Of a stretch of 64,000 nt of DNA, positions 87 to 64,000 are shown piece by piece. A program made the position numbers and the translations under genes. Within the stretch, counting starts at the first letter, position 1; each line of letters begins with the position of its first letter. This stretch comes from Stegostoma tigrinum (lineage: Eukaryota), in contig NC_081363.1 in the NCBI RefSeq assembly GCF_030684315.1, forward strand, positions 47,443,540-47,507,539, in the 5' to 3' direction. Below the pieces are notes generated by a model, which worked only from the letters and a program-made list of their open reading frames with translations, searched no databases and was not told where the DNA came from.

Positions 87-1399
87 GTGATTAGAGTTAA
101 GGAGTAAAAACAAGTTTCTTAGTTGCCATTACTTAAAATAAGCATTTAACCACACTAATGTATTGCATGAAAACATTTAATAATCAGGTATACTGATGCA
201 ACAGGGATCTGGCTGGCAATCTCATTTCTCACCTGCAGGACAGTTCTACAAGAAATCTACCCCAATGTTTTTGATTTTAAAAAAAAAGAGGAGGGGGCCA
301 AGGACAGTAATTAGTGGGATTCCTAGTCTGGAGACACAGGAAACCAATGGGAGTTTCAATATTGTACAGCTAACCCAAGACAGGGAGTACCTAGAAAACA
401 TTTCATTTCACATCTCCCTTTTTCAAATTCCTTCAACTACAGATACTCTGTCAATTTAGTTAGTTTGTTTTCAAACTTTGAAAATAAATACGAGTATAAG
501 CTTCCTGAGAAATTAGTCTACATTTAAATGGATGGTTAAAGATTTGTTAGCATAAAGTTTTATGAACATGATCATTACTTTGTGTCATACCATATTTTTA
601 TACAGCAAACAGAAAAGGTCGGTGACTGATTGATTGATGCTGAATTGAATATTTCACATTCAAGGATGAGGATGGAGGAGAGATTGAAACACCACAAAAG
701 TAATTCCTAGTTGGTACTTTGCGATTCCTACTTGAGAGAGGGCATATGACCATCAGGAAACTTAGTTATCAGTGTCAGGTCCAAAGTCACTTCCAAACTT
801 TAAGGTGAAAGGGACCAACAGTTGTGGTCCTTTCTTGTTCACTACAATGCAAGCTGCTGGGTACCCAACACAAGCAGGGCTGCAAGACAGCAAAGTGTGG
901 AGCTGGATGAACACAGCAGGCCAAGCAGCATCTCAGGAGCACAAAAGCTGACATTTCGGGCCTAGACCTGTCTCACTATTCCCAACTAAAGAATAAACTC
1001 ATAAGCCACTGATTCAGTAAAAAAACAAAGTGGCTTATTTTAAGAACCAATGAATAAGTAGACAGGAATGATAAAGTATTTTGTTCCAATTAGGATTCAT
1101 AATTGGATCAACAAAGGTTCTCTGTTAGAAGATCTGCTAGTTACACTGGAAACTAAATTGCATACTAAACTAAATCAGAATAATTTAGACTGACCAAGAT
1201 GTGTGTCTAGTAACAAATGGCTACTAAATATTTCCCTCCTTTCAGAGGGAGTCCACTTTAATTTCTACTCCAACATTTTTCAATCACAAAATCAAAAGAC
1301 AAATACTGAAGATATTCACAATTGTTATTTTAAACAAGAGTGATCTGGAAAGGTCAGACAAGAAAGATTTATTAAAATCTAAAAGCAAAAGAAGGATAT
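87..1399 (-). other. GMFB: U12-type AT-AC intron (GMFB intron 4)
   Basis: 5' splice site ATATCCTT at 1399-1392, branch point TCCTTAAC at 103-96, terminal AC at 88-87. Splicing joins AG|A to give the Arg of QPRF in frame. Confidence 0.95.
885..970. mobile_element. Truncated Penelope-like terminal-repeat fragment (family A)
   Basis: gtgtggagctggatgaacacagcaggccaagcagcatc...aaagctgacatttcgggcctagacc is shared with copies near 26540, 42470, 47955, 54390, 55000 and 62906. Confidence 0.7.
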
Positions 1400-2177: not shown

Positions 2178-4158
2178 CTGTGACAAAAAAAAGTGTTCTT
2201 AATTGTTTTTTAAAAAGTCAGTTATTTTGATTATTACAAATGTTCATTTGTCACAAGTTTAAACTTCCACTCGTTTTAATAAGTTTAGTGCTTCAAGCCT
2301 GTTGTTGGAAAGCTTTACCCTAGTAAACATATTTAAAAGCAGTTACTAAGATTTGTTGATATTATTACTCAAGTTGACATTTATGAATTATACCCATCTT
2401 CAGCCCTCCTGAAGCATTTCCAAAGAAAACAAGATATAATTCAACAACTTTTATATAGCACTTCACAAATGTCAGGAGGCACTTCACAGGAGCACTAGAA
2501 ACTAAAGTCTTGCACCAAGCCACAGCAGAAGACATCAGGTCAAAAGACTGGAAAAAAAATTATCAAGAATCTTTAAAAGAGAGACACAAAGGACAAGAGG
2601 AATTCCAGAGTCTGGGGCTAAGGCAACTGAAGGCACAACCACAAATGGTCAAATATGTATAAATCTGGAATGCTTAAGTGGCCGGTTGAGAGAACTTAGA
2701 ACATCTGATCTTTCAATGGAAGAAATTCTCTTGACCACAACCCACCAAAATTATTCAAATCCATGACTGAGTTTGTAGCCTCACCTCAAGCCTTTGTATT
2801 TTGTTATAGAAATGCCCAATTTTTTTCAAGAAGGCAGCACCAAATTAATTATTCCACCTTTTCTATTTTGTGTACTGTAGCGCTTCATTTTCTCCCGCAA
2901 CCGAGAACCAACTATAGCCTTTCAAAGGCATGTCACTGGACTAGCCACAGTAAACTGGGGACCATGAAGGCAAAGATTTCACAAAATTATAGATTCACAA
3001 ACAAGATTTAGAATAACAGGAAGGCTAGTCTGCTACCAGGTAATTTAGCCTTTTAAAAAATTTGCAATTTGAGACTCTTTCCAATAGCATGCAAGTGCCT
3101 GAGTGTTTTCCATAAAAGGCATGATCAGACAAAGATCTATTTCATTTTCAGGTAGTTAAAAGCTGGAGGGAAGAAAACCAAAACTGAAGGTGGTCACTGG
3201 ACCAAAAGCATGAATACTGTTTTCTGTTCACAGATGCTGCCAGACAGCAGAGTCTTTTTCCAGCTATTTCTGATTTTCAGCATCTGCAGTACTTTGAGTT
3301 TTTTGGAAAATAAAATTCCACCAATTAAAATCAAATTCTACATGCTGAAAAACAAATGGACCATATTTGAACATGATAGCAAATGTTAGAATAACAGCAT
3401 TCACTGTTACCTTAGCACAAGCAAGCTAGCAATTTTCAGCAAGTGTACAAGCACAATTAAACCAAATTTCAAAAAGTTGCTCCGGGAGATGTCATTCTCC
3501 TGCAAGTGGAGACATAAAAGCTGGCTTTCTCCAGTCGCGTGTACTGAACAGTGCTAGTTCATGTTAGAATGGTCAACAGACTAAACTTGACGTAAAGGCT
3601 TGAATCAACAAATCCTATGTTTTAAAAGTGACATTTATGGCCAAATTACTGCAAAACAACTAGCGTGGGAAGAAGAGTTATTTGTGGGAAGAAGAGTTAT
3701 TTTCTGCAAAGCACGACGTCTTTATTTCTTCAGCTTTTGACGATTGACAGTTTTTGGAAGACATTATTTGTACTATCCATGACTCTTACTTCTCTCCTTA
3801 AATGCAATCTTTTCCTCTCTACTTCACTTCTTGTACCTGATAATGATGTGGAATTTACTAGTCTGCCATTAGTGATCCTTCAAGTGGGTTCGTAAAGGAG
3901 CTACACAGTTGTTCCTTGTTCACATTAATCCCCTACATCTTGGCACTGTGCTTTTCAGTCGTCGTGCTCACTGCAGCTCGCCGTGCAAACTAAACCACCC
4001 CCACCAAGGCAAGGGGGAGGCTTTGTGCAACAGGCGGCTCTCAATCAACGGTGAGCGGCTCAGCTGGCCTTGGGCACTGTCGTGAGGGTGGGGTTCGTTA
4101 GCGCCGACATTTAAACACTGGACCGAACCGTTCGCCATCCTGAAGATGTTTCACTCAC

Positions 4159-7697: not shown

Positions 7698-7880
7698 AGG
7701 AGATAGCAAGAACTGCAGAAGCTGGAGTCGGACTCAATACAATGTGGAGCTGGAGAAACACAGTGGGCCAGGCAGCATCAAAGGAGGAGGACTGATGAAG
7801 GTTGTGAACCCGAAACTTTCCTGCTCTTCTGATGCTGTCTGGCCCGCTGTATCCCTCCAGCTCCACACTGTATTGACTCC
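7698..7880. mobile_element. Palindromic Penelope-like repeat with hammerhead-like centre
   Basis: Inverted arms (gtggagctggag...cagcatca / tgatgctg...ctccagctccac) around CTGATGA-aggttgtgaaccc-GAAAC at 7792-7816. Confidence 0.65.
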
Positions 7881-8679
7881 TACTGTCACTGCCTTCTTAT
7901 TTAATCCCCCTGTTGTAATAGTTTTCTGTTCAGTGTCATAGTCAGTTGACTCATTCACACTGCAGCTCTTATCTCCATTCTCTGATTCTCCACCCCTGAA
8001 CATGATCCATACAAGCTGCAAAGAGCTGACTCGTTGGACAATTGCAAAGGCTGAAGCTCCTCAATTTCTATCTCTTGATTGCCATATGAAGCTAACTCAC
8101 AGTGACACCATCCTGTCCCTGACCATGAGCCAAACCAGAAGACCTTAGTGTAAGGAGTGTAATTACCTTCTGGAAGAAAGTATGCAGGTAATCAAGTCCC
8201 AAAGCTCAGATACCAGCTCAGTAACTCAGAGTTGAAAACTATAAAAATACCTCCTATTCTGACATTGTTATTGTGTTTAATTAATGAATTAATTAATAAT
8301 TTTCTTAATTAAATTTTAAAAAGTCCTCCTAGTCTTGTTTTCACTTATACTCACTTTATTTAAATTGCTGTTCTCTACGCCTGATTGAAAATCCCTTTAG
8401 ACATGTAGGAAATGTTCACCAATCAATCACCAATCTACTGTCCTGTGATTTCCCACCTCGACATTTTCATTCCCAGTACATATCCTGACTAATGGTGATA
8501 TTTCCTGCCCCAAAGCTTCACTATTTCCTCACTGGTTTAAGCTTCGAGGTGTCGCTGTTTTACACTCCAAAGCCCCAAATATGATAAATTTATCCTATCA
8601 ATGTAGCCTGTAACTAAATATTATAACTTTATAACTATAAAATGCTGTTGATTGGACCAGGAAATATTTGTATCGACTA

Positions 8680-11494: not shown

Positions 11495-12215
11495 TTGTTG
11501 ATTTTATTTGATTTATTATTGTCACATGTACCTAGATCCAGTACCTAGTGAAAAGTTTTGTTTTGCATGCAGGCAAAACATAATATTCAAAGTGCACCAG
11601 GCTAATAGAGCAGAGCGAAGAACACAATGTTATAGTTGCAGAGATGTTGCACAAACAGCAAGATCAGCATTAAGATGCTGCTTGGTCTGCTGTGTTCATC
11701 CAGCTCCACATTTGGTTATCTAAGGCCAACATTAAATTCAGATTTTGAGAGATCCAGATCAGAAGTCTAATAACAACATGGAAGAAGCTGTTCTTGAATC
11801 TGTTGGTGCATGTGTTTAAGCTTTTGTATCTTCTGCCTTATGGAAGAGGATGAAAGAGATTATGACCAGGGTGGGAGGGGGTCTTTGATTATTTTGGTTG
11901 CCTTCCCAAGGCAGCAAGAATTATAGATGGAGACAGTAGATGGAAGGTTGGCTTGTGTGATTGACTTGGCTGTGTTCACAACTCTCTGTAGTTTCTTGGG
12001 GGGTGTGGGGAGATCAACTGCCATACAAAGTTGTGTTGCATCAGCATAGAATGCTTTCTATGGTACATCTATAAAAATTGGCAGGAGACTTTATGGACAT
12101 GTCAAATTTCGTGAGCATCCTCAGGAAGTAGAGGCATCCTTGTGCTTTCTTGACCATAGCAAAAATGTGAATGGACCAGGATAGATTGTTGGTGATCATA
12201 TTTCCTCGGAACTGG
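11495..12215 (-). mobile_element. Rex1-like LINE 3' fragment nested in a plus-strand CR1 3' end (about 11240-12410)
   Basis: Reverse complement is homologous to 36390-37157 (KKAQ..LYFLR..., RFKNSFF, aataaatcaa tail). A small Penelope-like piece is inserted at about 11673-11722. Confidence 0.65.
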
Positions 12216-17245: not shown

Positions 17246-17390
17246 CACACGACTCCAGCCAATATGACCTGATGAAGGAGCAGTGCTCCAAAAACTTGTG
17301 ATTTCAAATAAACCCGTTGGAATATAGCCTGGTGTCATGTGATTTCTGACCTTGTCCATACCAGTCCAATACCAGCACTGCTACATCATA
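17246..17390 (+). mobile_element. Penelope-like repeat (family B) with degenerate hammerhead core
   Basis: CTGATGA-a-GGAGC-agt-GCTCC-aAAA at 17269-17293. Downstream sequence is homologous to 29430-29555. Confidence 0.65.
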
Positions 17391-23624: not shown

Positions 23625-23732
23625 GTTTCTATGGTCACAGTAATTCATGTTCCAGATGAGAAATACAGACTCACCTGCCGGATCTTATACCAGTATCTGC
23701 TGACTGCACAAGGTCACATATATGACCTTAAG
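23625..23732 (+). CDS. CGRRF1: CGRRF1 exon 5 (108 nt)
   Basis: ttttcag acceptor, VSMVTVIHVPDEKYRLTCRILYQYLLTAQGHIYDLK, GTAGGT donor. Confidence 0.95.
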
Positions 23733-24960: not shown

Positions 24961-26507
24961 AGAGTGTCGAGTTCTCATGAGATGCTCAACAGAATATGTA
25001 CAGATAAAGGTGAGAAGCTAATAAGCTCATAAGACATAGGAGTGGAAGTAAGGCCATTCGGCCCATCGAGCCCACTCCGCCATTTAAATCACGGCTGATG
25101 TTTTGAGTGTAGGTGACTCTTCATTAGAGCTCTGAAGAGTCATCCAGACTTAATTTTAGCTTGCTGTCTCTCCATAGATGCTGCCTGACCTCCTGTGATT
25201 TCCAGCATTTATTTTGTTTTCAGTACAGATTTTCAGCATCTGCAGTGATTTGTCCTACATTGCAGCATGCTCCCACAGGGAATGGTTGAGCCAAATAATA
25301 TAGGTGTGTTTATGGAGGTAGACAAGCATATGAGAAAGTTGATGATAGATTGTTGCCATGGTAGTTTTAAGGTGAGGGTTTCGTGAAGAATTTTCAAGCA
25401 TTGTATAAACACCACAATAGACTGGGTGACTGGCTTTTATCTGTGCCGCATATCCCAAGTAAAACCATTCCTGGCTTCCAAATCACCCTCTTCTAATCAG
25501 GGATTGCCATATGAACATTTGAAGCATAGCAATATGACACTGAGAATACAGGACAATGGGTTTAGTTTTGGTTGTTTTATTGAAGGGCAGACACAGATGT
25601 GACAGGCAAAATAGTTGATGTTGAAATCAACTACAGTGTTATAAAACTAATTATATTCGTACTCCTGCTCCAGTTGAGATAAATCTGAGCAGTCTAGGAT
25701 TAGAGCCTGTGATCTTGGTTGTGTGTATGATTCTGTCCTTATTTACTGAGCTGTTGGGCACCAAATAGTTTTAAATGTATTTTTTAAAATTAGGCATTTA
25801 ATTAGTGTATTGAGGTCGTCTTAGATTATCAAGAAACTTGACAGAGACTGATTTAGATTATTCAGGGGCTTGCTTCCATGTCTTTTTCCTTTTAAGTGGT
25901 TGTTTGAGTTTATATATAAACGCTAAAACTTGAATATTTTGAAATTACCAAAAAACACATCTCATGAATGCTATATTTGTTAAATTACTTATTTTGACCA
26001 TCATGGCCTTTAGAAGGTGGATGGGAGATTTAATCCGTTAAAACTGTTAAGAGTTGCTGTGAATCAGTTTGAGGCCTAACTGAGCAGCCTGGTGGTACCT
26101 TCTCTTTTGTGAGGAAGTATTTGGCCACCATTGTGATTAAGAAAAGATTTGGAGCTCATTGGTATGGATATCTGTAGGTAAAATCATGTTGTTGCATTAT
26201 GCATGATGGCTTCACAATTCTATTTCAACATAGGCATAGTTGCATTTCTAAAATGAATCCCTCTGCAGTGCTCACTTTGCACCCTGCCTTTATAAGTCTC
26301 CCAAAATCATTTGCAGCTATTTTTCCTTTGCCTGTCCACAAAGTTCACTTTTCTACTTAATGTTCATCTTTTTATTTAGTCCTGTAAAAACAGTTTTGTT
26401 TTCAGTGAAGGGCATATAATTTACTACCATTGCTCAGCAACTAGTTTTAGTATTTATCTCTCTCCCTTTATCCAAGAAGTTTCCAAATGCAGTTATTGCA
26501 GTTGTTG

Positions 26508-26689
26508 GGAACTGCAGATGCTGGAGAATCCAAGATAACAAAGTGTGGAGCTGGATAAACACAGCAGGCCAAGCACCATCTCACGAGCACAAAAGCTGAC
26601 GTTTCAGGCCCGAAACGTCAGCTTTTGTGCTCCTGAGATGCTGCTTGGCCTGCTGTGTTTATCCAGCTCCACACTTTGTTATCTTATAC
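26508..26689. mobile_element. Near-perfect palindromic Penelope-like element (family A) with 11-bp TSD
   Basis: Inverted arms of about 75 bp centred near 26609. Direct repeats TGCAGTTGTTG at 26497-26507 and 26690-26700. Confidence 0.85.
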
Positions 26690-28374: not shown

Positions 28375-30400
28375 AACAGATTCATAAAATGGTTACAGCG
28401 CAGAAGCACGTTAGTCAGTCTGTTGTATCAGTGTTGGCTTTACAAAGAACCAAATTACCCATTGTCTCACTGTAACCTTTTCTTTTGTAGCCTTGCAGAT
28501 TCTTACTTTTTTGGATAATAATTCAGTAGCATCATAACTGCATCAATCAACCCTGCCTCCAGCACACTCAGGCAGTACTTTCCAGATTCCAAAACCATTC
28601 CATATATGAGAATTTTTTTTTCATGGCTCTGGCGCTTTTGTTAGTTATCTCATTTGTACTCCTGCTCCCATTGACGGAAGGACCAAGAATATTTTTCCCA
28701 TCTATTCTGTAAGACCCCTCATGATTTTGTACGCTTCTACTGAAATTCCTCGCAAGCTTCTTCAACAGTCCCAAGCTGACTAGCCTATCTACATAATGAA
28801 GTTCCTCATCCCTGGAACCATTGTCATTAACAATTTCGACACTCTCTCTTGTGCACTAATGTATTTTCTGAAGCATAGTACCTACAACTGGATGCAGTAC
28901 TCCAGTTGACACCAAACTAGGGCTCCATACAAGCTTAATGTAACCTGGTAAAAACCAAAAGAACTGCTGGAAATCTGCTCCATTCTGAGGAAGGGTCACT
29001 ATGTCTGAAATATTAATTTCTCTCCACAGATGCTACCTGACCTGCTGAGCTTTTCCAAAAAGTTATTTTTGTTTAACATAACCTCCTTGCTTTTGCACTC
29101 TATGCTCTTTTTGATAAAACCATACGTTTTATGAACCACTCTCTTAACTGGCCCTGCTCTTTTCAAACACGTACCTACGCATACACTCAGCTCCTGCTGC
29201 TTCAGTACTCCTTTACAATTGTACCTTTTTTAAGGTTGTCTCTCCTCGTTCTTACCACTAAAATGGATTGCCCTGCAATTTTCCACTTGTCTGTCATTCA
29301 ATCAACTTGTTTATGTGTGCAAATTTATCCTCCTCACTGTCAGAAGTCACACGACATCAGGCTATAGTCCAACAGGTTTATTTGAATTGACAAGCTTTCG
29401 AAGCGTTGCTCCTTTGTCAGGCGATGCAACTTCACCTGACGAAGTAGTAGTGCTCCAAAAGCAAGTGATTACAAATAAATCGTTGGACTATAATCTGGTG
29501 TCATGTGACTTCTGACTTTGTTCACTCCAGTCTAAACCCAGCACGTCCACATCATGGCTCCTCAGTGTTGATAATGCTTTCAAAATTTATCATATTTGAA
29601 ATTATGCTCTATTCACCAAGGTCTGGACCATTAATGTATGTCCTGAAGAACAGTGCCCCTTACTCCTCCCTGGGGCACCTCATTACACATCTTCCTCCAA
29701 TCCAAATTGACTAATTATGATTGTTTCCAGTTTCTCAGCCAATTTTGTATCTACATCACTATGTTCCCTTTTTATTTCATGAGTCATAATTTCATTCATC
29801 CAGTGTAAAATCACATTATATTTATAAATCCGTATGCACTATGTCAGCAGCATTACCTTCATCAACCCTCTCTGTTGCCGCATCAATAAACTCCAGAAAG
29901 TTAGTTGAATGTAGTCTGCCTATAACAAATTTATGCAGGCTCTCGTTAATTAACCTGCATTAACCCAAATGATTAATTTCTCCTAAATTAATTGTTAGTG
30001 GAAGCTTTCCTGCTGTTAAGGTTAAACTGACTGCCCTGTAATTTCTGGGTTTGTCTTTTTATCATTTTTGTAACGGAGTGTAAGTTTTGCAATTTTCAGA
30101 CCTGTGGCACCATTCCCAAGTCTAAGGAAGCCAGGAGAATTGCGTCCAGTGTCTCTGTAATCTCCACTTGCGCTTCCCTCATGTATGCTTCAGCGTATTA
30201 TTGTACTTGGTCCTAGTAGCAAGTCAACAGTAATACAGTTAACCTATCCAGTGCTTTCATCTTAGAAATTTAAGATGGTTCAGGTGTATGAACTATCACT
30301 TCTTTTACCACGACTTGTGTGGATCATCTTCTTTGATTAACTTGGATGCAAAGTATTTTTAAAAATACCTCAGCTATGCACCCTACCTTCTAACCCACTC
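28375..30400 (-). mobile_element. Decayed CR1-like LINE with nested Penelope-like inserts
   Basis: Reverse-strand CR1 ORF2 remnants, interrupted at about 28947-29072 and 29341-29558. Confidence 0.65.
29341..29558. mobile_element. Palindromic Penelope-like element (family B) with two inverted degenerate hammerhead cores
   Basis: Inverted arms cagaagtcacacgacatcagg... / ...ctggtgtcatgtgacttctg. Cores CTGACGA..gctcc-aAAA (+, from 29436) and CTGACAA-aggagcaacgcttc-GAAAGCTT (-). TSD tcctcactgt / tcctcagtgt. Confidence 0.75.
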
Positions 30401-31324
30401 CTACTCTTAGCATCTATTTTACTATTTATATCCCTGTTGAAGGCTTTTGGATTCCCCTTGTGTTCACTGATGGTCTCTTTTCATTTCTTTTATGAAACAA
30501 AGACCTGTGAATGCTGCAGATCTGAAACAAAAACAGAAATTGCTGGAAAACCCAGCAGGTCTGGCAGCATCTGTGGGGAGAAGGCAGTGTTAACGTTTCA
30601 ACTCTTTATCAAAAGATTTTTTATTTGATTTTTCACTTTGTCTGAAGTTTATATATTTTAACCCTGTAGATTGTGTATTAGCCACCTGACATATATCATA
30701 AACATACTTTTTTCTTCATCTCTACTTTTTCATCCTTCAGAGCACTTTGAATTTGTTTGGCCTATTTTTCCCCTTGAAAATACACTATGCCTGTATTCAA
30801 ATCATCTCCAGTCAACTTGTACCCATTCCTGCCCTTCTTCGAATCAGGTCTCTGATATAGCCAGGATGTCATATTTCCACATGGCATTCCTTGTCTGCTT
30901 TCTTACTAATCTTGTTTACTGAGAGAAATGCACTCTCATGCATGCATAGTAACCCTAATGAGGACTTGATTACCTTTTCCCCCAATCTAAACCCATGTAA
31001 TACCTCTTTCCTATTGCAATCTTTCTCCTCCAGAATTCTGTACATCTTGGTGTTTCTCTCTGATGTTAGCTGCTGTCAGTCCAGTCATTATCCTATTAAA
31101 CTTCCTTTAAGAGTACTAGCAAGTTGTCCCTCAAGCATATCTGTTAGGTGCACCTTGCCTGTACGTCTTTTATGTTTGCCCCAGAATTTAATCTCAATGT
31201 TCCAGGAATCACACGGTGCTCTTATCCAGTGTTTCCAGCTGTTGGCACGTTTGTATTATCTTCCAATTTCTATATTCACTTGTGCACAAACTGGTAATAG
31301 TCTGTAGATTACCACTTGCATGGG

Positions 31325-31790
31325 TACATATGAATTAGGGTCAGGTGTAGGCCATTCTGTCCCTCGAGCCTACAGTGCCTTTTGACAAGATTGTAGCTGA
31401 TGTGATCGTAACCTCAACCCTACTTTCCCTTTTGACTTCCTATTACTCCAGTAAATAAGCATCTCTGCCTCACTAATATTTAATGATGCAGTCTCTCCTA
31501 CTGTCTGGGAAAGAGAATTAAACAAACTCCTGTCCCTCAGTGAAAACATTTCTCTTCTTTTCAGCCTTAAATGGGAGACTCCTCTCATTTTAAACTGTTC
31601 TGTGGTTCCTATTTCACCCACAAGGAGAAAACACCTTCTAGCATCCACCTGGTCAAGTTCACTGGATCATGTGTGTTTCAGTACGATCACCCTCCGAAAA
31701 TCCAATAGATGCAGGTCCAATCTTCCACCCACCCCCGCAATCCCAGGAATCAGTCAAGTGAACATTCTGTGAAATGCTCCGATCTGAATC
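31325..31790 (-). mobile_element. CR1-like LINE 3' fragment
   Basis: ORF 31370-31648 resembles the CR1 ORF2 C-terminus and 3' UTR. Confidence 0.6.
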
Positions 31791-32473
31791 AATTTTGATG
31801 ATGAGTCACTCAACCTGAAAAGTTAACTCTGTTTTGCTGTGCACAAATGCTGCCTAACCTGCTGAAATTTTAAAATAAATTTTGTTTTTCATTTAAAATT
31901 TCCAGTATTGCAATATTTTGCTTTTGCTTTTAGCACCTTAAATTTGATTATTGCACTGGATTTCCCCCACAATTGTTCTGCCTATATCATTGGTACCAAT
32001 GTGGACCAGTGGCTCTCGCTGTTTACCAGCTTGGCCCTCTGCAACCACTGAATGACATACTTGATCCTCGTACCAGGAAGACAATATACTATGCTGGATT
32101 CAGTTGCTCAAGACTCATGGCTGCAGCAAGGTTGATCTGGATATTTTATTTTCCTTTTGTTTCTGTTTCTTTAACTTCTGCTTTTGTTTTTAATTCTGAC
32201 TATTGTATTCTAAGGTGGTGCTGGAGGGTGGTTGCTGTGTACACTTTTCACTGTACTCCTGTACTCTGGAACATGTGACAATAAAATCTGATCAAATCAA
32301 GCAGTCAATTTGAGCATGCTGCCTAAATATAAGGCACACTGCTTCTTTCCGGCCCACTTTTGTTAAAGCCAGATAATAGATATTTAATATTTTCACAGGT
32401 TTTCAGGAGCTAAATTTCCCTCATTTATTTCTGAATTTTGAGAGTCTGTAGTGCTGTGATGCAATGCTGCTCA

Positions 32474-42410: not shown

Positions 42411-42424
42411 AGTCATTATTATAG

Positions 42425-42622
42425 AGATAGTAGGAACTGCCATGCCGGAGAATCTGAGATAACAAGGTGTCGAGTTGGATAAATACAGCAGGCCAAGCAG
42501 CATCAGAGGAGCAGGAAGGCTAACGTTTCGGGTCTAGACCAGGCCCGAAACATTAGCTTTCCTGCTCCTATGATGCTACGTAGCCTACTGTGTTCATCCA
42601 GCTCTACACCTTGTTATCTCAA
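42425..42622. mobile_element. Palindromic Penelope-like element with imperfect TSD
   Basis: Inverted arms centred near 42540, flanked by tcattattatag / tcgttattatag. Confidence 0.8.
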
Positions 42623-42700
42623 TCGTTATTATAGTTTGTTTAGGAAACCAGGAGTTTCTGGTCAAGAAATACAAACAGATCACAGTGCAATGTGAGAACA

Positions 42701-42835
42701 TTCTGATGAAGGGTCTAGGCCCGAAACATCAGCTTTTGTGCTCCTAAGATGCTGCTTGGCCTGCTGTGTTCATCCAGCTCCACACTTTGTTATCTCGGAT
42801 TCTCCAGCATCTGCAGTTTCCATTATCTCTGATCC
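42701..42835 (+). mobile_element. Penelope-like terminal repeat (family A) with hammerhead-like core
   Basis: CTGATGA-a-GGG-tctagg-CCC-GAAA-ca-TC at 42703-42730, followed by the family A arm. Confidence 0.75.
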
Positions 42836-47524: not shown

Positions 47525-48600
47525 GGACCCTCTTGTGGCACAGTGGTAATGTCCCTACCCCTGGACCAAGAAGCCCAGTTTTATGTCCGAACTGCTCCAG
47601 AGTTGTATAATAACATCTCTGGACATATTGGTAAGAAAAATAACTTAAATTTTAAAAAAAATTAAAAACAAAAGACAGCGGCCCTCTTACTGCACAGTGG
47701 TAGTGTCCCTTGAACCAAGAGGACTGGTTTCAAGTCCAGCCTACCCAGAGGTTTTTAATAACATCGCTGAACAGATCAATTAAAGAAATAGGTTAAGTAA
47801 AAGAATTAAAACTACAAACAGGGAAAGAATTAAAAGTAGACACACAGACTCTTGTGGTGCAGTGGTAGTGACCCTACACCTGGACTGGGAGGTCTAGGTT
47901 CAAGTCCCACCTGTTCTAGAGGTATGTGATAACATCTCTGAACATAAGTAACAAAGTGTGGGGCTGGATGAATACAGCAGGTCAAGTAACATCATAGGAG
48001 CACAAAAGCTGACGATTCAGGCCTCGACCCTTCATCAGAAAGATCTCTGAACATGTTGGCTAGAAAAATAGGTTAAGCTTTAAAAAAATAGAAAGGACAC
48101 AAGTGAATTGCCCTTGCTGGGCATTGCACACAGTGTGATTAATTGGAAACATGGGTGATTCTTTTAGCTGTGGCTGGTAAAAAGTAGCCTAAATAAAATC
48201 AAAGAGCTCTTGTGGTACAGTGCTAGTGTCCTGACCTCTGAGCTAGGAGTCCCAGGTTCATGTCCCACTTGCTCCAAAGTTATGTCATAGCATTTCTGAA
48301 CAGGTTGGTCTGAAAATACCTATAAATAGACACAAAGGCCTGTTGTGGTGTAGTCGTATCCTTGATAGTGGTAGTATCTTCAAGTCAGAAAGTACAAGTT
48401 TGAGTCCCACCTGATTTGATTTTGTGCCGTAACATGCCTGAACAGGTTGATTAAAATAGATGGAACGGTTCTGGTGTTGCAGTGGTAGTGTCGCTGCTTC
48501 TGAACCAGGAGGCCTAGGTTCAAGTCTCATCTACTCTAATACGTGTAATAACATCTCTGAACAAGTTGGTTCAAAAGTATCTATAAATAGACACAGCCTA
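47525..48600 (+). repeat. Tandem cluster of about six tRNA-derived short SINE units
   Basis: Units of about 115-125 bp starting near 47529, 47684, 47848, 48207, 48340 and 48470. Each has tgtggyrcagtggtagtgtc (A-box), ggttcaagtccc (B-box) and taacatctctgaaca. Confidence 0.8.
47946..48042 (-). mobile_element. Penelope-like fragment (family A) inserted in a SINE unit, 12-bp TSD
   Basis: ATCTCTGAACAT at 47934-47945 and 48043-48054. Minus-strand core CTGATGA..GAAT (mutated). Confidence 0.8.
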
Positions 48601-48879: not shown

Positions 48880-50550
48880 TGTTCTCTGATCACATGGTTT
48901 AGATTTTATGAAATAAAAAAGTGGATATGTGGACATAGGTCATGCCTTTACTAAAGAGGAAAAGGAAAATGGCCTCTGTTGTTTCCTATCAGAAGTAATT
49001 TGTGAGCTGGATGACTATGAATTAAATAGTGATGAGCATTTCAACCTTGTATTCTAATTCTAATTATTGACTGAAATTTACAAGAAAGATGAGCTGATAA
49101 ATAGACATAGGAAGAACTGCTGATGCTGGAGTCAGATAGAGATAAGTGTGGAGCAGTAGGTGCAAAGTGGGCCAAGCAGCATCAGACGAGCAGGAAAGTT
49201 GACTTTTTGGATCATTTCTGAAGAAGGGTCCCAACCTGAAAAGTCAACTTTCCTGCTCCTCTGCTGCCTGGCCCACTGCTGTTCCAGTTCAGCACTGTGT
49301 TATCTATGAACTGATAAATACCAACTGTATGGTCAACCTTTGATAATTTTTGGAAAATGTTCAGTGAAAGTATGTTTCAGGACTTCGACACATTGGATTT
49401 TGTCAGTTCTTTATACAATATGGTGTGCCCTGGATTAGTATTGGTGGTTAAATGCAGACATTTCTCAGGAAGGCATACCATGTTGGATCAGATGCTTGTT
49501 GTCTTTAATAAAATTCCAAAATGGAACAAATGGGACATTATGCAGGAACACAAAGATTCAATGACTGTAAGATTTTGACAAGGTCTAAATACTGCACTCG
49601 TGTCAATATATTAGAATGGTTAAAAACAGGAAGAATGCAGATGAATGCATCTTTGGAAAAGCTGTCTCTTACAGCAGAATACTGAATTGGAGCAACAATG
49701 AAAGACAAATGGATACTGAAAATAGTAAATAGATGCTTCATGTGTGGTTCAAACTATTATTATGGAATAAAATGCTCACAGCAGAGAGACATGGCCTCAA
49801 ATGACAGAGGATGATGATATTGATGGATCTAAACAAATTATACCAGTCACAAGGGATTTTATTCTTCTGAAGAATGTGTTATTTGCAGACTAGTTTAACT
49901 GTGCAGTGCTAGATAGTACTTGCATTTTGGTGGCAAATGGAATATTTCTCTTAAAATGTTTTCTTGATTCACAAAGTAATGGGGATGTGCGCACACTTAT
50001 GGAATATAAAAGTACTAATTGTTTCATATTTGGCAATAACAACACATTGAGGTAATTTACGAGAGTATATCTTTCCATGTAGAATAACTGGAATGAGTCA
50101 TCATATAGATATTGATGTTTTTAGTGAGATGCCAATGCTGCTGAGTAAACCTATGAAAAAGACACCAAAGAAGTTTGATGATTTTAGAACATCCATAAAA
50201 CTGGAATGTCTTCATTGTGAACAATCTTTTTGAGAAACTTACTAATCGCAATGTCAGCAAGTCTTGTTGGCGTGTGGTTGATAAGGATTAGAGAGAAAAC
50301 AGTAAAATGTCTTACAATTACACAGATAATTTGTTCACATTACATATTAAAGCTTGACAGCTTGATAAAAGATGCAGGTGTGGTGAATGGAGAGTTAACA
50401 AGGTTGATAAATCTGTTGGCACATGACCTTTAATGAGGCAATTGTCATGGAGTTAAGGGTATGGACAATAGTCATCCACATTTTACACACCCAAGAACCA
50501 GACTCTCTAGTAATATTATTAAGGGCAAATGAGTTGAAAAGGTCATGGAG
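48880..50550 (+). mobile_element. Possible decayed LTR retrotransposon gag/protease remnant
   Basis: VDMWT, ELDDYELNSDE and YKKDEL fragments, plus an aspartic-protease-like AVLDSTC near 49903. Heavily degraded. Confidence 0.35.
49104..49305. mobile_element. Palindromic Penelope-like element with 15-bp imperfect TSD
   Basis: Inverted arms; core CTGAAGA-a-GGGT-ccca-ACCT-GAAA-ag-TC at 49218-49245; TSD atgagctgataaata / atgaactgataaata. Confidence 0.75.
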
Positions 50551-53500
50551 AAATGGAACAAGGATCAAACATTTGCATACTAGCAGTTTCTGACTGTTAT
50601 TGGCAAATTCCCCTAGATCTAGTTCACAGGCATATTATAAAATATAAACACTTAGTCTTGTATCCTGCATTTGAAAGGATTTTTAAAAACTATTTTATGG
50701 GAGTGAGCATCACTGGCAAGTCCAAAATTAGTTGCTCACTCTTAATTCCCCTTAAGGTGGTCACAGAAAAAGACACTTTCTTGATGTGTTCCTGTCCATT
50801 TGGTGTAGGTCATTAGGAGTACCAGGACTTTGATCAAGTAACAGTGGAAAAAATAGTAACGTAGTTCCAAATCAAGATGATATATGCCTTGAAGGGGAAT
50901 TTTCAGGCAGTGTAATTTTTTTGCAACTGCTGCTTTTGTCTCTGTAGTTGATAGGTGTCACAGGTTGGATGTAGCATAAATAGATTCCTGAGGAGTTTCA
51001 GCAGTGCACCTTGTTTATAAGCATACATTGCTGCCCCTATGTATCAGTGGTGAAGGAAATGAATGGTGAATGGGATGCTGATCAAGCCAGTTCATTGGTT
51101 GAGTTTCTTGTCATCATTAGAACTGCATTCATTTAGGCAAATGGAGAGTATCCCATTTGCCACCCATTTCTACCTTGTAGATGGTAGATTGGATCTGAGG
51201 GAGTCAAGAGGCAAGTTGTACTTTACAAACTCCCAGCTTTTAAGCTGTTGTTGTAAACTTAGATTTTATATCATAGAGTCCTGCAGCACAAAGCAGGCCT
51301 TTCGGCCCAAGCAAGTCTGTGCTGACTGGAATGTCCATCCACGCCAACCGCATTTCCCTGCACTTGACCCATATCCTTCTGAGCCTTTCCTATCCATGTA
51401 TTTGTCCAAATGCTTTTTAAATGTTGTTCATGTATCTGCCTCAACCACTTATGGTCTTATGCTGGCAGCTCATTCCGTATGCATATGATCCTCAGATTTC
51501 CATGTATTTTTCCCCTTCTTATCCTGAACTTTTGTGCTCTAGTCTTTGATTTCCCCAACCCTGGGAAAAATACTGAGTACATTCATCTAGTCCATGCCTC
51601 TCATGATCTTGTACACTTCTATAAAGTCCTCCCTCAGTCTCCTATGATGTAAAGAGAAATGTCCAGGCTGGTCCAACCTCTTCCCTATAACTCAGTCGCT
51701 TGAGTCCTGGCAATGCCCTTATAAACTTCTTCAGCACTCTTTCTAGTTTAATAACATCCTTCCTGTAGCAAGGTGACTAAAACGGTGCACAATACTCCAA
51801 GTCTGGCCCTCCCAACATCCTGTGCACCTGCAACATAACTTCCCAACTCCTGTCCTCAGTGCCTCCTGACTGATGAAGGTCAGTGTGCCAAAAGCCTTTT
51901 TCACTGCCTTGCCTACCTGTGGCTCCACTTTCAGAGGATCATGCACCTGAACTCCAAGGTCCCTATGTTCCATTACACTCGTTAAGGCCCTACCATTCAC
52001 CATGAAATTCCTACCTTGATCTGACTTTCCAAAATGCAACACCTCTTACTTATCAATTATTAAACTCCATTTACCATTTCTTAGCCTAATTCCCCAGCTG
52101 ATCAAGATCCTGCTGCAATTTCTGATAACTTTCCTCACTGTCCATGAAACTGCCTTTGTTCGTGGCATCTGCAAACTTACTAATCATGCCTTGTACATTC
52201 TCATCCAAATCATTGATACAGATAACAGCAATGTGCCCAGCATTGACCCCAAGGCATACCACTAGTCACAGACCTGCAGTCTGACAAGCATCCTTCCACT
52301 ATTACCCTTTGCTTCCTACTATCAAGCCAATTATGTACCCAATTTGCCAGTCCTCCCTGGGTTCCATGATTTATAACCTTTCAGAGCAGCTGACATGTGG
52401 AACCTTATCAAAGGCCTTACTGAAATCTACGTACTGCCCTGTTCTCAACAACCTTACTGGTCACTTCAAAGAACTTCTAACAAATTTGTGAGGCATGATC
52501 TCCCACACAGGAAGCCATGCTGACGACTACTAATCAAACCCTGTCTTTCTAAATGCATGTATATCTTAACCCTTAGAATCTTCTCAAGTAACTTACCTAC
52601 CACAGATGTTAAGCTTATCGATCTATAATTCACAGGTTTTTCTTTGCAGCCCATCTTGAATAAGGGCACCACATTCACTACCCTCCAGTCTTCCAGGACC
52701 TCACTCGTGGCTAATGACGCTGCAAATATATCAATCAGCCAGGGCCCCTGCAATTTCTTCTCTAGCTTCATGCAGGGTTCTTGGATATAACTTATCCGGA
52801 CCAGGAGATGCCCTGTAGTTCTAGAACCCCCAACCAATGGAAATAATTTATCTTTATCTACCCCATCTTTTCATGTTAGTATCTTGAAGACTTTGACCAG
52901 ATCACTCTGTAACCTTCTAAATTCTATAGAATACAGGGCTAATTTATGTCATAGCTTAACCCCTTAGGTTTACAAGAATTATACCTGAACTTAAGTTGTA
53001 CTTCCTCCGAGGCCCTTATATCCACTCTAACGTGTGGTTCTGAGATCTGCCCAATATTCCAAATGGGGTCTAACTAGGGTTTTGTATAACCATGCAGCAT
53101 AACTTTGATATCCATGTACTCCCATCTCTCGATGCAAAAGCCATAATTCTATTAATTTTTTAATTTATTTTCTGCATCTGTCTGTGACATTTTTAAGATC
53201 TATATACCTGAAACCCCAAGTCTCCTTGGATGTCCACAGAAATTAACTTCATACCATCAACAACGTACCCTGACCAATCCTTTCTTGGCCCAAAATGGAT
53301 AGTTTCAGACTTGCTTATGTTGAACTCCATCTGCCAGTTTGCCCATTCACTGAGTCCATCAATATGCCTTTTTTACTTTGTTATCATCTATACCATCAAC
53401 AATACTACTTTGTGCCATCAGCAAATTTGGATATATGACTTTCGACAGGTTATCCAAATCATCAATAAATAACATGAATTATTGAGACCCTAACACAGAT

Positions 53501-53708
53501 CTTTTGGGACAACACTGGTCACATTCCGCCAGTTTGACCACTTGCCCATGATCCCTACTTTCTGTCACTTGCGACTGAAACAATTTCCCAGCCAAACAAG
53601 TAATTTGCTATCAATCCCGTGGGCTTCTACTTTACTTAACAGTCTTGTATATGGAACTTTATCAAATGCCTCCTGGAAGTCCACATAAACAATATAGATA
53701 GACATTCC

Positions 53709-53942
53709 ATAAAAACTGAAAGAACTGCGGATGCTGTAAATCAGGAACAAAAACAGAAGTTGCTGGAAAAGCTCAGCAAGTCTGGCAGCATCTGTGAAGA
53801 AAAAGTCAGAGTTAACATTTCAGGTCTGGTGACCAGTTCTGAGGAAGGGTCACTGGACCCGAAATGTTAACTCTGATTTTTTTTTTCTTCACCAATGCTG
53901 CCAGGCCTGCTGAGCGTTTCCAGCAACTTCTGTTTTAGATCC
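53709..53942. mobile_element. Palindromic Penelope-like element (family C) with 11-bp TSD
   Basis: Inverted arms of about 95 bp; ATAGACATTCC at 53698-53708 and 53943-53953. Confidence 0.8.
53835..53872 (+). ncRNA. Minimal type I hammerhead ribozyme-like motif
   Basis: AGUU-CUGAGGA-A-GGGUC-ACUG-GACCC-GAAA-UG-UU-AACU: 4-bp stem I, 5-bp stem II, intact core, vestigial stem III. Activity is not demonstrated. Confidence 0.6.
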
Positions 53943-54374
53943 ATAGACATTCCCTGTCCACTAACTTAGTGAACCTTTTGGTGGCTACCAATAAATCTGA
54001 AGATAAACAAAGAAGAGGGACAAAAGAAAGGAAGGGTCACTGGACCGGAAACATTAACTTTGATTTCTCTGCACAGATGCTGCCAGACCGGCTGAACTTT
54101 TCCAGCAACTTCTGTTTTTCGTTCCTAATTCACTGTTCTTTCTGTTTTTATAAAGGAAGTTAGATTTTTGGAGTTTATTCTTGCAAACCAGATCAAGGTA
54201 ATCAGCCTTGGCACGTAAATGGATCAGTGCTGAAAATGTCTTTGCTGATGGGGGCTTATGAGGCTGAAGTGAGGCTAATTGCAATGAGGGGTATGCAAAT
54301 AATGTTGAACTCCTAATAAGTATATAAAGGTGGCTCCAGTTTTATCCTTCTTCAACTGGGTTTCTGGAGGAGAA

Positions 54375-54468
54375 TCCAAGATAACAAGGTGTAGAGCTGG
54401 ATGAACACAGCAGGCCAGGCAGCATCAGACGATCAGGAAAGCTGGTGTTATGGCCCTCGACCCTACTA
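54375..54468. mobile_element. Penelope-like fragment with 14-bp TSD
   Basis: TTTCTGGAGGAGAA at 54361-54374 and 54469-54482. Confidence 0.75.
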
Positions 54469-54957: not shown

Positions 54958-55081
54958 CAGAAATAATGGGAACTGCAGATGCTGGAGAATCAGTGTGGAT
55001 CTGGATGAACACAGCAGGCCAAGTAGCATCTTAGGAGCTTGGCCTGCTGTGTTCATCCAGCTCTATACTTTGTTATCTCAG
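54958..55081. mobile_element. Internally deleted palindromic Penelope-like element with 16-bp TSD
   Basis: ATTCATTTATAGTATT at 54942-54957 and 55082-55097. Confidence 0.8.
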
Positions 55082-55589
55082 ATTCATTTATAGTATTGTT
55101 CTTTTTCAGCCATGTTGATACATTCTGCTTTTATTTTTCTCACATGAATTTACAGTTACTTTGCCTTCACTTTACATGCAAAGATATTGTGCTGTATCAC
55201 ACTTACCGCGGCATACAGAACACAACCTTGAGAGGGTGGTGCTCCAGCTGGTCCAGTAAGATATCCGTTTTAGCCAAACGCCCAGAAATACTGGATGTGT
55301 TCTGAATTTTAAAACTGGCCAAATTCTGTTATTTTACAGCTGCTGACATTACAAAAAACATTTATGTAGATAGATTTAGTTAAATAAAATTCAAGTCTGC
55401 CTTACAATTAAATCTTATTTATCAAAGCTTCTGAAGCATTCAGAATACTTAAGGAAAACTAAATCATGCTTTGACAGGACACACGTAATATGTATTTTTT
55501 TCTGGGCATCGGTTAGAAAAGTCACCGTATCCCTACTAAACCATGGCTGCAGCTTCTTAGACTGGTCTTCTGGTGTTTAACCAGTCCAC

Positions 55590-56350
55590 AGTACCATGAC
55601 CACACCGCAGGCACAACGACCATTCCGCCTCTCTCTTTGTGGGGTTGACGAGCCCTGGGTCACGTGCCGAGACACCGCGTGCTGGGAACCGATAGGCCGC
55701 GCTCTTCTGAGCGGCGGCGGACAGAGCACGGCACCCGGGCCTGCTGCCTTCTGAATCTCGACCGCTCGGCAGTTGGGGAGCGGGAAGGACAGCAGACAAA
55801 TTAATCGCTGCGGAAACTTCAGCTTCGGTTACGACTGGAAACGACGTCTGGCTGCGTGCGCGGCGAGCCCTTAGCAACGAAGCAGCCAGCCAGCCCACCC
55901 TCCCTCGGCAGAGGGGCGGGGCACAGGGCGCTGCGGCAGAGCCGGTAAACGTGTGGGTTTGTTGGGTGGGAGCTGGGTGCTGAGGGGCGGGGCGGCACCC
56001 GAAGCCCCGCCCGGTCTGTAATCGGAGGGGGGTGGGGTGGGAGTTGGGGAATGGCCTCCTCCGCCCCCGCCCCCGCTATTCCTGGCCCTCCCATGACGTA
56101 ATGCTGAATGTTAATAACTCACCGGGAGGGGGAAGGGCACTACTGGCCTAAAAATAAACTCAACTTTGTGGACACTGCCGCCGCTGATACAGCTATCACG
56201 GCCCCAGGGAGCGGCACTAACTGAAGCACCACCATTACACTTCCCCCCCCCTGAGCGGAGGCTGCAGTTAGCGGCAGGTCGGTGTGTAAAGCTCCTGAGC
56301 CCCTGGAAAGTGCGTCGGCCGCTGCAGCTGAAACGGGGAGGAGTCTGAGT
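55590..56350 (+). promoter_or_regulatory. SAMD4A: SAMD4A CpG island promoter / probable non-coding first exon(s)
   Basis: High GC and CpG content, E-box GTCACGTG at 55659-55666, several GGGGCGGG boxes, TGACGTAA at 56094-56101, about 1 kb upstream of the coding-exon acceptor. Confidence 0.75.
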
Positions 56351-57200: not shown

Positions 57201-57532
57201 TTTTGACCACGTATGGGAATGCGGGCGTTGAGGATTAATATTGATATCGTGGCGAGAGAAGATCTAAAATTCCAGCTCTGTTAATTCTGACAGGTGATAT
57301 ACTTGTTGTGCCTATTACATTTTTGGCCCACTGTTGATTGCCTTAGAGGAAGAGGGAGCGTGTCAACAGTGACGTTATTCTACAGAAAAGGAAAGAAAAA
57401 AATCGCAACTCGATCCACACAAAATGTGACAACCCCTCCTCTACATGCATGTGAGCTTGATTTTTTTGGGTGCCTTGCATCGAAGAATCCCAACGATATA
57501 AACTCGCCTGGCGCTGAGGCTGTTCCTTAATC
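57201..57532 (+). other. SAMD4A: 5' UTR part of the first SAMD4A coding exon
   Basis: Strong acceptor ttcttttggtttcctttccag ending at 57200. The exon boundary is inferred. Confidence 0.6.
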
Positions 57533-60700: not shown

Positions 60701-62329
60701 TCAATCATGTCCATCAGGAAAGAAAACTGCCATCTTTACCTGGTCTTGCCCACACTTGATAGTCTCTGGATCTTTAAGGATGGCTAGGAAGTGCTGGCCA
60801 GGTCAGCGATGTTTATAGAATTTAGACAATGTAAAATAAAATGTCAGAAACATGGTTGGTGGTCCAAGTTATTGGAGAGAATGGTAGGCAAGTGGCAGAG
60901 GTATTGTCATGTGTAACGGACCAGGGAATAGTTAATTGCCAGATTGTGTGTTTAAATTTAAACACACAGCTTAACTCTGCATATGTTGAGGAGCTAATCC
61001 ATGGGGAATATTGCAGTGACTACTATTACAATGAACATACTATCAAAGTTTAAATTTGCAATGCAAAAGGTAGTAATTGCTTGTGTAAAATATTCAAGTT
61101 TTTCTAGCTTTGTGAATATGACAGAAAAGAATTACCTGTGACCTTTGTCGGTAATGTTTAGCATGATGGAACTTTGCCTGTAGGTGTACATGTCAGTTAT
61201 TTTGGGGAACATATCTTTAGTCATATCTATTTTAAATACTGTGGTATCTAAGATATTAATGCTTTCTTTAGGTGTTGTGACTTTAATGGTGTTGATTTTA
61301 ATTTTTTTTTTGGGCAGGGCTTGACAAAAACATTACCTGCATGTGTTGACAGACAATGTTACTACATAACAATGTCACACAATTTTAAAAAATAAAGTAA
61401 GAATGAAAAAGCAACCCCTGAATTCAGGGAAAAAGAAGCACTTGAGGACCCTTCTAAAACTTAAAAAAAGCCTTGCTTTATCGTGACAACACAAGTGGTG
61501 TTCTCCACTAATGGGATGCTGCAATCAAGGTAAAAAAGATGTTTTCCCTGCCACACAATACATTATATGGCAAATCAGTTTCAGTGGCAGTTTGATGCAA
61601 TGTACATAGGCTGTACATGTTAACAATTGATGGATTACATTAAACAGCAAATCCCTTCTTGTTGCTTACCAGGTAGAGTACTAACCATGCTCAACAAATC
61701 CTTGCTAAATTCAGAATTTAGAGCTTAATTTTACCAAAACTTGGCTAGGTGTCTGTTTCTCAGTGTCATGGCGGGTTTCACTCTGAATCTAGCAAGTTAT
61801 CCCACGCAATTCTCTGCTGTTCGTTTCATTTATATGTGCCCTGTGTTTTTACAGTGCTGTGCTCACACTCTTGTACACTTGCCAGCAGTGGAAGAAGTAC
61901 TTGCCACTTTTAGACTTTTGCCCATCCATGCATCAGGTCAAATGCTGCCAGCCACAAATGGCTCACCACGGAAATGAGTGGCCATTTGATGACATCACCT
62001 ATCTGAACAACTGTCATTTGTGACTGCAGTGGCAATCCATCATTAGTACCATATCATGTTAGAATCCTGTCAGATAGAGACAACTCTTAATGCAGATTGA
62101 AGAACGACAAGGTGTTGTGCTGCAATGTGGGAGCACTATGTGTTGTAAAGTCATCAGTTATGTTAATGTTTGCACTTGCCGTTGTTGAATAATAATTCAG
62201 GAACGACAAACAAAAAAAAACTAATTTTTGGTTTTGGGACAAAACAGTCAGATCTTCTTGTTTAAAAGACTTTGATAAACAACAGTACTTTGGGAGCAGT
62301 TTAATTTAGTTACTCAAATGCAAAACACT

Positions 62330-62525
62330 TTGGATGCTGGAAATCTGAAATGAAAACCAAGTGCTGGAGAAACTCAGCAGGTCTGGCAGCAGCTGTGATG
62401 AGACACGATTGTTGTTTTGAATCAGTTCTGATGAATCCTATTGAACTCTATGTTAACTTTGTTTCTGTCTCAACGCTTGCTGCCAGACCTGCTGAGTCTG
62501 TTCAGCACTTTCTGTTCTTGTTTGT
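62330..62525. mobile_element. Palindromic Penelope-like element (family C, degenerate)
   Basis: Inverted arms aagtgctggagaaactcagcaggtctggcagc / gctgccagacctgctgagtctgttcagcactt, with a central agttCTGATGA...gttaact. Confidence 0.7.
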
Positions 62526-62905
62526 TCATTGTTAAACTATTCAGTCTGGTGTTTTACTTGGACTGACATTAATGTATTTATTCAATCTCTTCAATTTTTT
62601 AATCTTTTGTATACACAATCTAAAGAACTGTACATGAACTAACCTTGCAAATACTACAGACTAGTGGTAGACTATTTTAAAAGATGTGCAAGTATTGAAA
62701 GTATTATGGTGGCGCACTGTGAAAGTATCAACCAATTAATAGCACACTGAATCAGCATGGTTCAACCCCATTCCATGGCTTAAATATGTCAGTTTTCTTT
62801 TAAACAGTTCACTACTGAGAGTGCACCTATGTTGAAAGAACTGCTGTTTGAGATATAGTTTGAGTGATCACAGAATTGATTCGAAAAAGCCTGAAATGTA
62901 GAAGA

Positions 62906-63187
62906 ACACAGCAGGCCAAGCAACATCTTAGCACAAAAGCTGACGTTTCGGCCTAGACCCTTCATCAGAAAAGGGGGAGGGGGAGAGGGTTCTGAAATAT
63001 AGGGAGAGAGGGGGAGGCAGATCGAAGATGGATAGAGGAGAAGATAGGTGGAGAGGAGACAAGAGAGTTGCAGTGGGAGACAGATCCCATGAGGTTTGTC
63101 TCCTGAGATGCTGCTTGGCCTGCTGTGTTCATCCAGCTCCACACTTGGTTATCTCGGGTTCTCCAGCATCTGCAGTTCCCATTATCA
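62906..63187 (-). mobile_element. Truncated Penelope-like element with inverted terminal repeat, hammerhead-like core and 15-bp TSD
   Basis: CTGAAATGTAGAAGA at 62891-62905 and 63188-63202. Minus-strand CTGATGA-agggtctaggcc-GAAA-CG-TC at 62968-62942. Purine-rich internal segment at 62969-63110. Confidence 0.8.
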
Positions 63188-64000
63188 CTGAAATGTAGAA
63201 GACTTTTTTTTTGTTAGAGATGCCTTAATGATCCTTTTTTTTCCCCCAAAAGGACATGTAAACATGTATAAATTTGACTCCACAATTCAATGAAGTCTTC
63301 TCTCTCTAGGAATATGTGATAGCTGAAACTATACTTGACAGATTTTAAGGCAAAAACCTTTATTAGCTTTTATGAAAAGATCAGTTTGAGATTCTTGCAT
63401 GTGATGTTTACGTATTGATAATAGCTAACAGGTACAAATGTTTTGCACTTTGTAGTTACTGCAACTAACTGTGCTTTACAAACATAATTAATTGCACATT
63501 ATTGTATGTAAGCCAAATTTTTATCATTTGAAATCTTTGTAACTTCATGAAAATAGCATCAATAGGGAATCAGAGATAGTAAGAACTGCTGATGCTAGAA
63601 TCAATAGGGAATCGTTGTGCAAAGGAAAAACTTATGTCATTAACTTGGGCAACGAGAATGTGGTTGTGTATTTTTATATAATACATGTTTCTGATATGTG
63701 GTCAGCTGTCTCATTCAATGAATGACAAATTTTAAAGGAAAAACTGAAATTGGGACTTCATTGGTTGAAACCCCCATTTTAGGTTTTTGGATTTTACAGT
63801 ATGAGCGAGAGAGTGGTCTTTAAATTGGTTTAATTTTTAATTGAATAAGTCTATTACTAACTTGATGTCCAACTAATAGTTTGAATATTCATTCTGACAT
63901 ATGATTCAGGGCATCTACCAGTGGAATCTGTAGGGAGGGAAACTGTGTTAATGGTTCAGGTCTACAACTGTTCACTGGTTCTGAAGGGTCATAGGCTTGA

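Follow-up and report, generated by a model that had tools for sequence, protein, structure and literature searches.

The window analyzed here, a 64,000-nucleotide stretch of the Stegostoma tigrinum genome, carries CGRRF1 exons on the plus strand at 21464-21631, 22918-23112, 23613-23732 and 27185-27598, along with CpG islands at 4001-5000 and 55501-56500. A coding exon at 57518-57814(+) contains a Vts1-like domain according to Pfam; synteny suggests that this exon belongs to SAMD4A, with the 55501-56500 island as the likely start of the gene. Weak RVT_1 fragments at 43454-44377(-), 52469-52870(-), 53568-53819(-), 9012-9332(+) and 46248-46460(+) are presumably LINE relics with no tie to the hammerhead repeats described below. 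Related repeat fragments at 12044-12241(-) and 36468-36692(+) match ALKBH8_N, and four copies of another repeat of ~90-100 bp, which resembles the head of a tRNA-derived SINE, lie ~260-360 bp apart at 47514-48595, one of them interrupted by the hammerhead copy at 48038. If CGRRF1 starts at the 4001-5000 island, the plus-strand copies at 7792, 17269 and 25132 would be intronic to it in the sense orientation.

At 53835-53872(+), a family C hammerhead reads stem I AGTT/AACT, CTGAGGA, a bulged A, stem II GGGTC/GACCC, GAAA, TG and TT, so that both stems and the core claimed for this site in the preliminary description were found again when we re-read the sequence. It is the sole complete copy in the window, with 13 of 13 core positions, 5 of 5 pairs in stem II, 4 of 4 in stem I and a self-complementary AUGU that includes a wobble. 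A sequence check found the CUGANGA box at all nine loci that had been named, and the claim of at least ten loci agrees with our hand count of 15 arms in 13 insertions that retain the box, intact or decayed, within the window (3184, 7792, 17269, 25132 and the inverted 25127, 28985, 29436 and the inverted 29420, 31795, 42703, 48038, 49218, 53839, 62428 and 62968). The proposed density of roughly one copy per 5 kb was close to the measured value of one box-bearing insertion per 4.9 kb. The insertions and arms are collected in Table 1.

Table 1. Hammerhead-bearing insertions and related arms in the window
Feature	Position	Strand	Remarks
Whole family C insertion	53711..53942	both	Tail present on the inverted arm (53711-53834), absent from the direct arm (53835-53942); flanked by an 11-bp target duplication (53698, 53943)
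Second family C arm	54029..54133	+	190 nt downstream of the first; 5'-truncated within the CUGANGA box
Family A solo arm with tail	42699..42832	+	Intact core; palindrome now ACAU through decay; stem I of 2 bp
Family A insertion	62901..63191	-	C3 at 62968; inverted tailed arm 63095-63191; 15-bp target duplication; upstream element sequence, rich in pyrimidines, continues for at least 93 nt in the hammerhead arm
Family A tail-less solo arm	47949..48042	-	GAAU for GAAA; 15-bp target duplication
Inverted pair of the older A-like type (A2), within a CGRRF1 intron	7699..7884	both	Arm 7792(+) without cleavage triplet
A2 inverted pair	49103..49305	both	Hammerhead arm 49218(+); 15-bp target duplication
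Decayed family C copy with short inverted arm	28955..29073	+	C3 at 28985
Family B solo arm with tail	17264..17389	+	G12 to A
Family B head-to-head pair	29339..29555	both	Cores 29420 (minus) and 29436 (plus); one tail; borderline 11-bp target duplication
Family D copy, stem II of GAGTC type	25107..25250	both	GAAA box deleted; short palindromic inverted arm shares AGCT centre
Decayed family C copy	31790..31900	+	
Decayed family C inverted pair	62322..62522	both	Box at 62428; tail on left arm only
Decayed family C copy with tail	3184..3292	+	
Family A hairpin insertion	26506..26685	both	Arms truncated in stem II; one tail; 14-bp target duplication
Family A hairpin insertion	42423..42620	both	Arms truncated in stem II; one tail; 16-bp target duplication
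Family A arm truncated in stem II	54369..54464	-	14-bp target duplication
Family A hairpin insertion without hammerhead	54959..55085	both	16-bp target duplication
Tail-only insertion, ~30 bp	63572..63603	-	Target duplication up to 18 bp
Family A arm truncated in stem II	885..968	-	
Family C arm starting at GAAA box, tailed	30499..30600	-	
Family A fragment downstream of core	11660..11721	+	

A strict descriptor, requiring an exact core, at least 4 bp in stem II and UH, gave four matches in the window (28985, 42703, 49218 and 53839) compared to a mean of 0.05 in 20 Markov shuffles, and allowing one core mismatch gave 15 matches compared to 3.8. The type I order of the CUGANGA/GAAA/UH core was kept at 11 to 13 of 13 positions in 10 anchored arms, with the extra A after position 9 and the G10.1-C11.1 pair also present. 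A sequence-only model built from 10 training copies mostly recovered, as its best further matches, truncated arms that were already known. An Rfam search of the window (E up to 5) returned 18 matches, none of them to a hammerhead; those to microRNA families were below the gathering score, reflect the inverted arms and were set aside. A CUGAGGA...GAAA look-alike at 12124(-), inside one of the ALKBH8_N-matching fragments, failed the stem II test. Judged by its sequence, the motif repeated across the window is a genuine minimal hammerhead-ribozyme pattern.

Parts of the family scheme in the preliminary description needed revision. Family B proved to be a composite of two damaged copies, each showing only part of the claimed stems: stem II is GGAGC/GCTCC at 17269, where stem I (TGAC/GTGA) forms only 3 of 4 pairs; at 29436, stem I is TCAC/GTGA but stem II reads GTAGT/GCTCC; and AAAA replaces GAAA in both, with loss of G12. 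For family A, the box stands at 42703, 62968 and 48038, but 62968 carries a 1-nt deletion in stem II and 48038 reads GAAT. Stem I of family A is only 2 bp long, while it pairs at 4 of 4 positions at 53839 and 29436, and the 7792 arm is missing 6 nt over the cleavage triplet. Homology among families A, A2 (7792 and 49218), C and D extends past the core, so that only family B provides an independent comparison.

In that comparison (21 pairs of B with A/C copies drawn from 10 copies), core identity was 0.85-0.86 and stem identity 0.17-0.19, while the next 60 nt downstream were 0.46-0.52 identical compared to 0.49-0.50 when shuffled, which upholds the view that the core is more conserved than its flanks. 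Stem II was paired in 41 of 46 cells across the 10 copies, with compensated changes between B and A/C from G-C to A-U at pair 3 and from U-A to G-C at pair 4. All four pairs of stem I differ between family C at 53839 (U-A, U-A, G-C, A-U) and family B at 29436 (C-G, A-U, C-G, U-A). These pairs were counted on anchored positions, as a MAFFT alignment shifts family B by one column. The claim that the stems vary while keeping their pairing is therefore supported by compensating pairs in stems I and II, amounting to a handful of independent changes in few independent families. The palindrome in place of stem III was also recovered, as ACGU at 62968 and AGCU at 29420(-); in the least damaged arms positions 15.1-16.1 read ACGU, AGCU, AUGU or AUAU, and ACGU appears in the loose-end majority letters of sequence runs X1, X5 and X15.

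Most arms have CpG-type changes at C11.1-G12 and 15.2-16.2, the two CpG sites where changes concentrate; these changes remove the general base (G12) or the palindrome, as neutral decay would. In family A, the commonest of the families, CUGAUG is predicted by folding to pair with the strand around the cut site, and since this family also has a 2-bp stem I, even its parent may be a poor ribozyme. The copy at 53835 is predicted to be trapped in a hairpin of ~100 bp with its inverted arm (-139 kcal/mol, z -16.6). The copies are probably inert where they sit.

The intact copy at 53835 could instead have been co-opted as an active ribozyme near the SAMD4A promoter with the 54029 arm as its cleavage partner, since it is the only complete copy, lies ~1.7 kb upstream of the CpG island and SAMD4A-like exon, and carries an AUGU that complements ACAU in the 54029 arm exactly, with matching stem I, so that a cross-copy site can be drawn. 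However, this complementarity with 54029-54060 follows from CpG decay on opposite strands of neighboring family C arms, and one complete copy in 15 is expected under random decay. The cross-copy fold would moreover cost +13.6 kcal/mol without the inverted arm and +34.5 kcal/mol with it, and the predicted pair probability of stems I and III is 0. We therefore give co-option next to no credence.

The motif carriers are short insertions of 30-290 bp. With element edges set by hand and compared to random intervals, target duplications of 11-18 bp were detected at p <=0.02 in 9 of 22 elements, while 3 were borderline (p 0.05-0.07) and 10 had none. By eye, 11 insertions in the window consist of two arms joined head to head. 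The 3' ends lie at about +92 and +128 from C3, forming two ends ~35 nt apart, and the extra ~35-nt tail was present on one arm only in all nine well-formed two-arm insertions inspected by eye. In sequence run X1, contig ends (2021+1372+827) pile up at the tail-less end at 63153-63155, and inverted joints of the same form also occur. The segment 63060-63095(-) within 62901-63191 is repeated elsewhere and differs from the usual sequence after 63061 in runs X5 and X15, which suggests a template jump or an internal deletion in the element.

Long inverted repeats flanked by target duplications, with no retroelement ORF linked to them, are also what MITE-like DNA-transposon derivatives or hairpin elements would present, in which case the hammerhead appearance would be incidental. 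However, the arms join at variable points and are unequal by one tail rather than forming fixed symmetric terminal inverted repeats, solo arms and the tail-only insertion carry target duplications as well, and the core is kept between otherwise unalignable families whose stems compensate. We consider a DNA-transposon origin very improbable.

On the other hand, 5' truncation, a head-to-head inverted 5' copy and an optional tail of 30-40 bp at one end are described for Penelope-like (EN+) elements (excerpts of PMC8557442, including Fig. 2, and PMC3846280), which also share the junction palindromes and target duplications seen here. In comparison with those elements as excerpted, the copies in the window are nearly all shorter than 300 bp and none bears an ORF, and the target duplications are 11-18 bp rather than the 8-10 bp given for rotifer elements (PMC3846280). 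Pfam detected no GIY-YIG domain or Penelope reverse transcriptase among the window ORFs of at least 60 aa (260 of 261, with the CGRRF1 exon searched separately). Protein searches for a parent ORF with repeat-derived frames gave 0 of 199 candidates, no matches, or 2 of 2 candidates, both short whale shark models. We rejected the RVT_1 similarity of one of these models, P0070, as a Penelope link; it probably comes from the second half of the model, which resembles the LINE-type fragment 43673-44131. Since the defining ORF was not found in the window or by protein searches, membership rests on architecture. The Penelope-type minimal hammerhead reading is nonetheless supported by the descriptor, core conservation, stem pairing and the features reported in the literature, and the carriers are likely fragments of Penelope-like elements as far as their sequences tell.

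Minimal hammerheads in the pLTRs of metazoan Penelope-like elements were described by Cervera and de la Pena in 2014 (PMC4209133). In the parts of that paper considered here, they share with our copies a type I topology without a real stem III, the palindromic 15.2-16.2, the G10.1-C11.1 pair, an extra nucleotide between 9 and 10.1, several families per genome, and a prevalence of solo copies tied to truncated elements with some opposite-strand pairs. They differ in a stem II of 7-8 bp compared to 4-5 bp here, and in the 2-bp stem I of our family A. The same parts give counts of ~4,000 in the coelacanth and ~9,000 in Xenopus, whereas the density here implies far more relics, and no shark is among the genomes they describe. 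In the published outline of the anole Poseidon element PAc (PMC11167929), the hammerhead likewise lies at the start of the pLTR/ORF junction, with an ATG at the core/stem II boundary as in family A and two 3' ends, located ~85-120 nt beyond stem II, that delimit the tail; neither there nor here does any insertion end at the cut site. In the anole element, the tail falls between two internal sites where reverse transcription starts, extension takes place on both target strands, the template is mainly uncut RNA, and the hammerhead needs protein. The activity of PAc was demonstrated with protein assistance.

To examine how the copies arose, we assigned the starts of 30 arms by hand, leaving out 17269, 3184, 31795 and a fragment at 19604; in families B, C and D, the 5' ends are bounded by the inverted junction. 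Eleven arms start at -15 to 0, 12 at +1 to +25, six further down and one further up, so that 23 of 30 begin in or just 5' of the hammerhead (p 6e-5 against a crude uniform null) within an overall scatter from +95 to -93. Among the joints mapped on the 62880-63200 interval, 11 of the 15 shown (of 409) also leave at 62968-62969, where upstream differences between subfamilies could pile up joints. Insertion from self-cleaved RNA is not supported, as 0 of 30 arms begin at the cut site. No shared spliced exon was seen upstream of the short copies, and our literature search found no paper on the clustering of arm 5' ends at a hammerhead. The upstream element sequence at 62972-63060 is strongly C-rich in sense, with G-runs on the other strand, and a candidate splice acceptor lies near 62992; the C-rich sequence could affect where copying stops.

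The clustering may reflect run-off to an RNA start just upstream, or stalling at stem II or the C-rich tract. It may alternatively reflect later deletion of hairpin centers, although this would leave the solo arms unexplained. In Drosophila virilis Penelope, the start is reported to lie ~120 nt upstream, and helix I is where an intron ends (excerpts of PMC2377424 and PMC4209133); this weighs against an RNA start right at the ribozyme. We tentatively propose, at somewhat less than even odds, that most copies are run-off cDNAs: reverse transcriptase would prime at the upstream pLTR tail and copy uncut RNA back to just 5' of the hammerhead, at a start site or structural stop, and primings on opposite strands would fuse into hairpins.

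The same 5' ends bear on whether a hammerhead-plus-tail unit of ~135 nt is itself a mobile non-autonomous element, akin to a solo retrozyme or a SINE, mobilized in trans by Penelope proteins. Most arms are short, 11 of 30 begin within 15 nt upstream of C3, the copy number is very high, and non-autonomous Penelope derivatives, including retrozyme monomers, are described in the portion of the retrozyme preprint used here (Li 2026, 10.64898/2026.07.22.740005). According to that portion, vertebrates, one chondrichthyan among them, also have non-LTR retrozymes whose type I hammerheads derive from pLTRs. However, retrozymes are defined as head-to-tail tandem repeats (10.64898/2026.07.22.740005), while the copies here are dispersed, solo or inverted, and no head-to-tail array of the hammerhead unit was among three TRF rows for the window. 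The 5' ends are moreover scattered rather than fixed, the cores decay at CpG, and the upstream part is itself high-copy, so that longer templates exist. The short copies also lack the post-tail sequence required by the anole protein, which needs the first 172 nt of the ORF in the account available (PMC11167929). The earlier characterization of the copies as non-autonomous repeats is not supported if it means a family that moves independently, and we regard a mobile short unit as unlikely; the variable 5' ends, inverted arms, optional tail and CpG decay of G12 or the palindrome fit truncated, dead insertion products.

The idea of a very large population, on the other hand, was borne out by contig and read counts. 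Contigs aligned to 62880-63200 (321 bp) numbered 119,726 in X1, 24,930 in X5 and 5,136 in X15, under three organism labels, and the repeat was found in at least three organisms of other sequence runs. Many of these other copies retain the stem II base missing at 62968, and the majority letters keep ACGU. Among 12.8 million raw bisulfite reads (X21), 33,980 matched the same interval, and the C-poor upstream part was covered to a depth near 25,000. These raw reads give a rough estimate of 40,000-130,000 copies reaching the upstream part if the genome is assumed to measure 3-5 Gb, with the caveats that the stretch is purine-rich and that bisulfite biases mapping; one such copy per 64 kb, as in the window, would give 47,000-78,000. 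Shorter fragments outnumber upstream-reaching copies by ~18 to 1 in the window.

The family A repeat translation matched only two proteins, the whale shark gene models P0070 and P0071, which appear from their sequences to be spurious translations of the hammerhead repeat; in one of these models, an inverted arm and a direct arm both appear to be present. DNA scans found no match in metagenomes to the exact family A pattern and none in viral contigs, and one bacterial and 31 metagenome DNA matches were rejected as chance, since none of the 32 aligned beyond 21-36 nt. Our literature search found no paper counting shark hammerheads, though motifs from sharks may be listed in the supplements to PMC4209133 and to the retrozyme preprint. 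Since Penelope-like elements are already reported to have expanded in whale shark introns (10.1101/443036, as excerpted), the suggestion that the population is probably unannotated is doubtful at the level of the repeat.

Together, these findings suggest, with a probability of about 0.85, that the copies are short 5'-truncated insertions with target duplications, likely the pLTR ends of several Penelope-like families, each with its own minimal hammerhead, and probably inert. By analogy with published Penelope biology, two hammerhead copies of one parent transcript would build stem III by pairing their 4-nt palindromes, and cleavage 3' of GUC/GUU would be weak and probably protein-assisted. Reverse transcription by the element's enzyme would begin at one or the other of two internal sites, giving tailed or tail-less ends, and nicks on either DNA strand would give one arm or two head-to-head arms. 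Copying would proceed mostly from uncut RNA and end in or just 5' of the hammerhead, after which the inserted copies would undergo neutral decay.

This kind of element was described in 2014, and what sharks contribute is several further families in very many copies; since the class has been known since then, the value of the finding is modest. With their exact ends and target duplications, so many dated insertions offer good material for studying Penelope-like integration and the role of the hammerhead, and the long intronic hairpins could yield double-stranded RNA. If the run-off reading is true, it would explain the solo minimal hammerheads that flood animal genomes, of which sharks would hold about a million.
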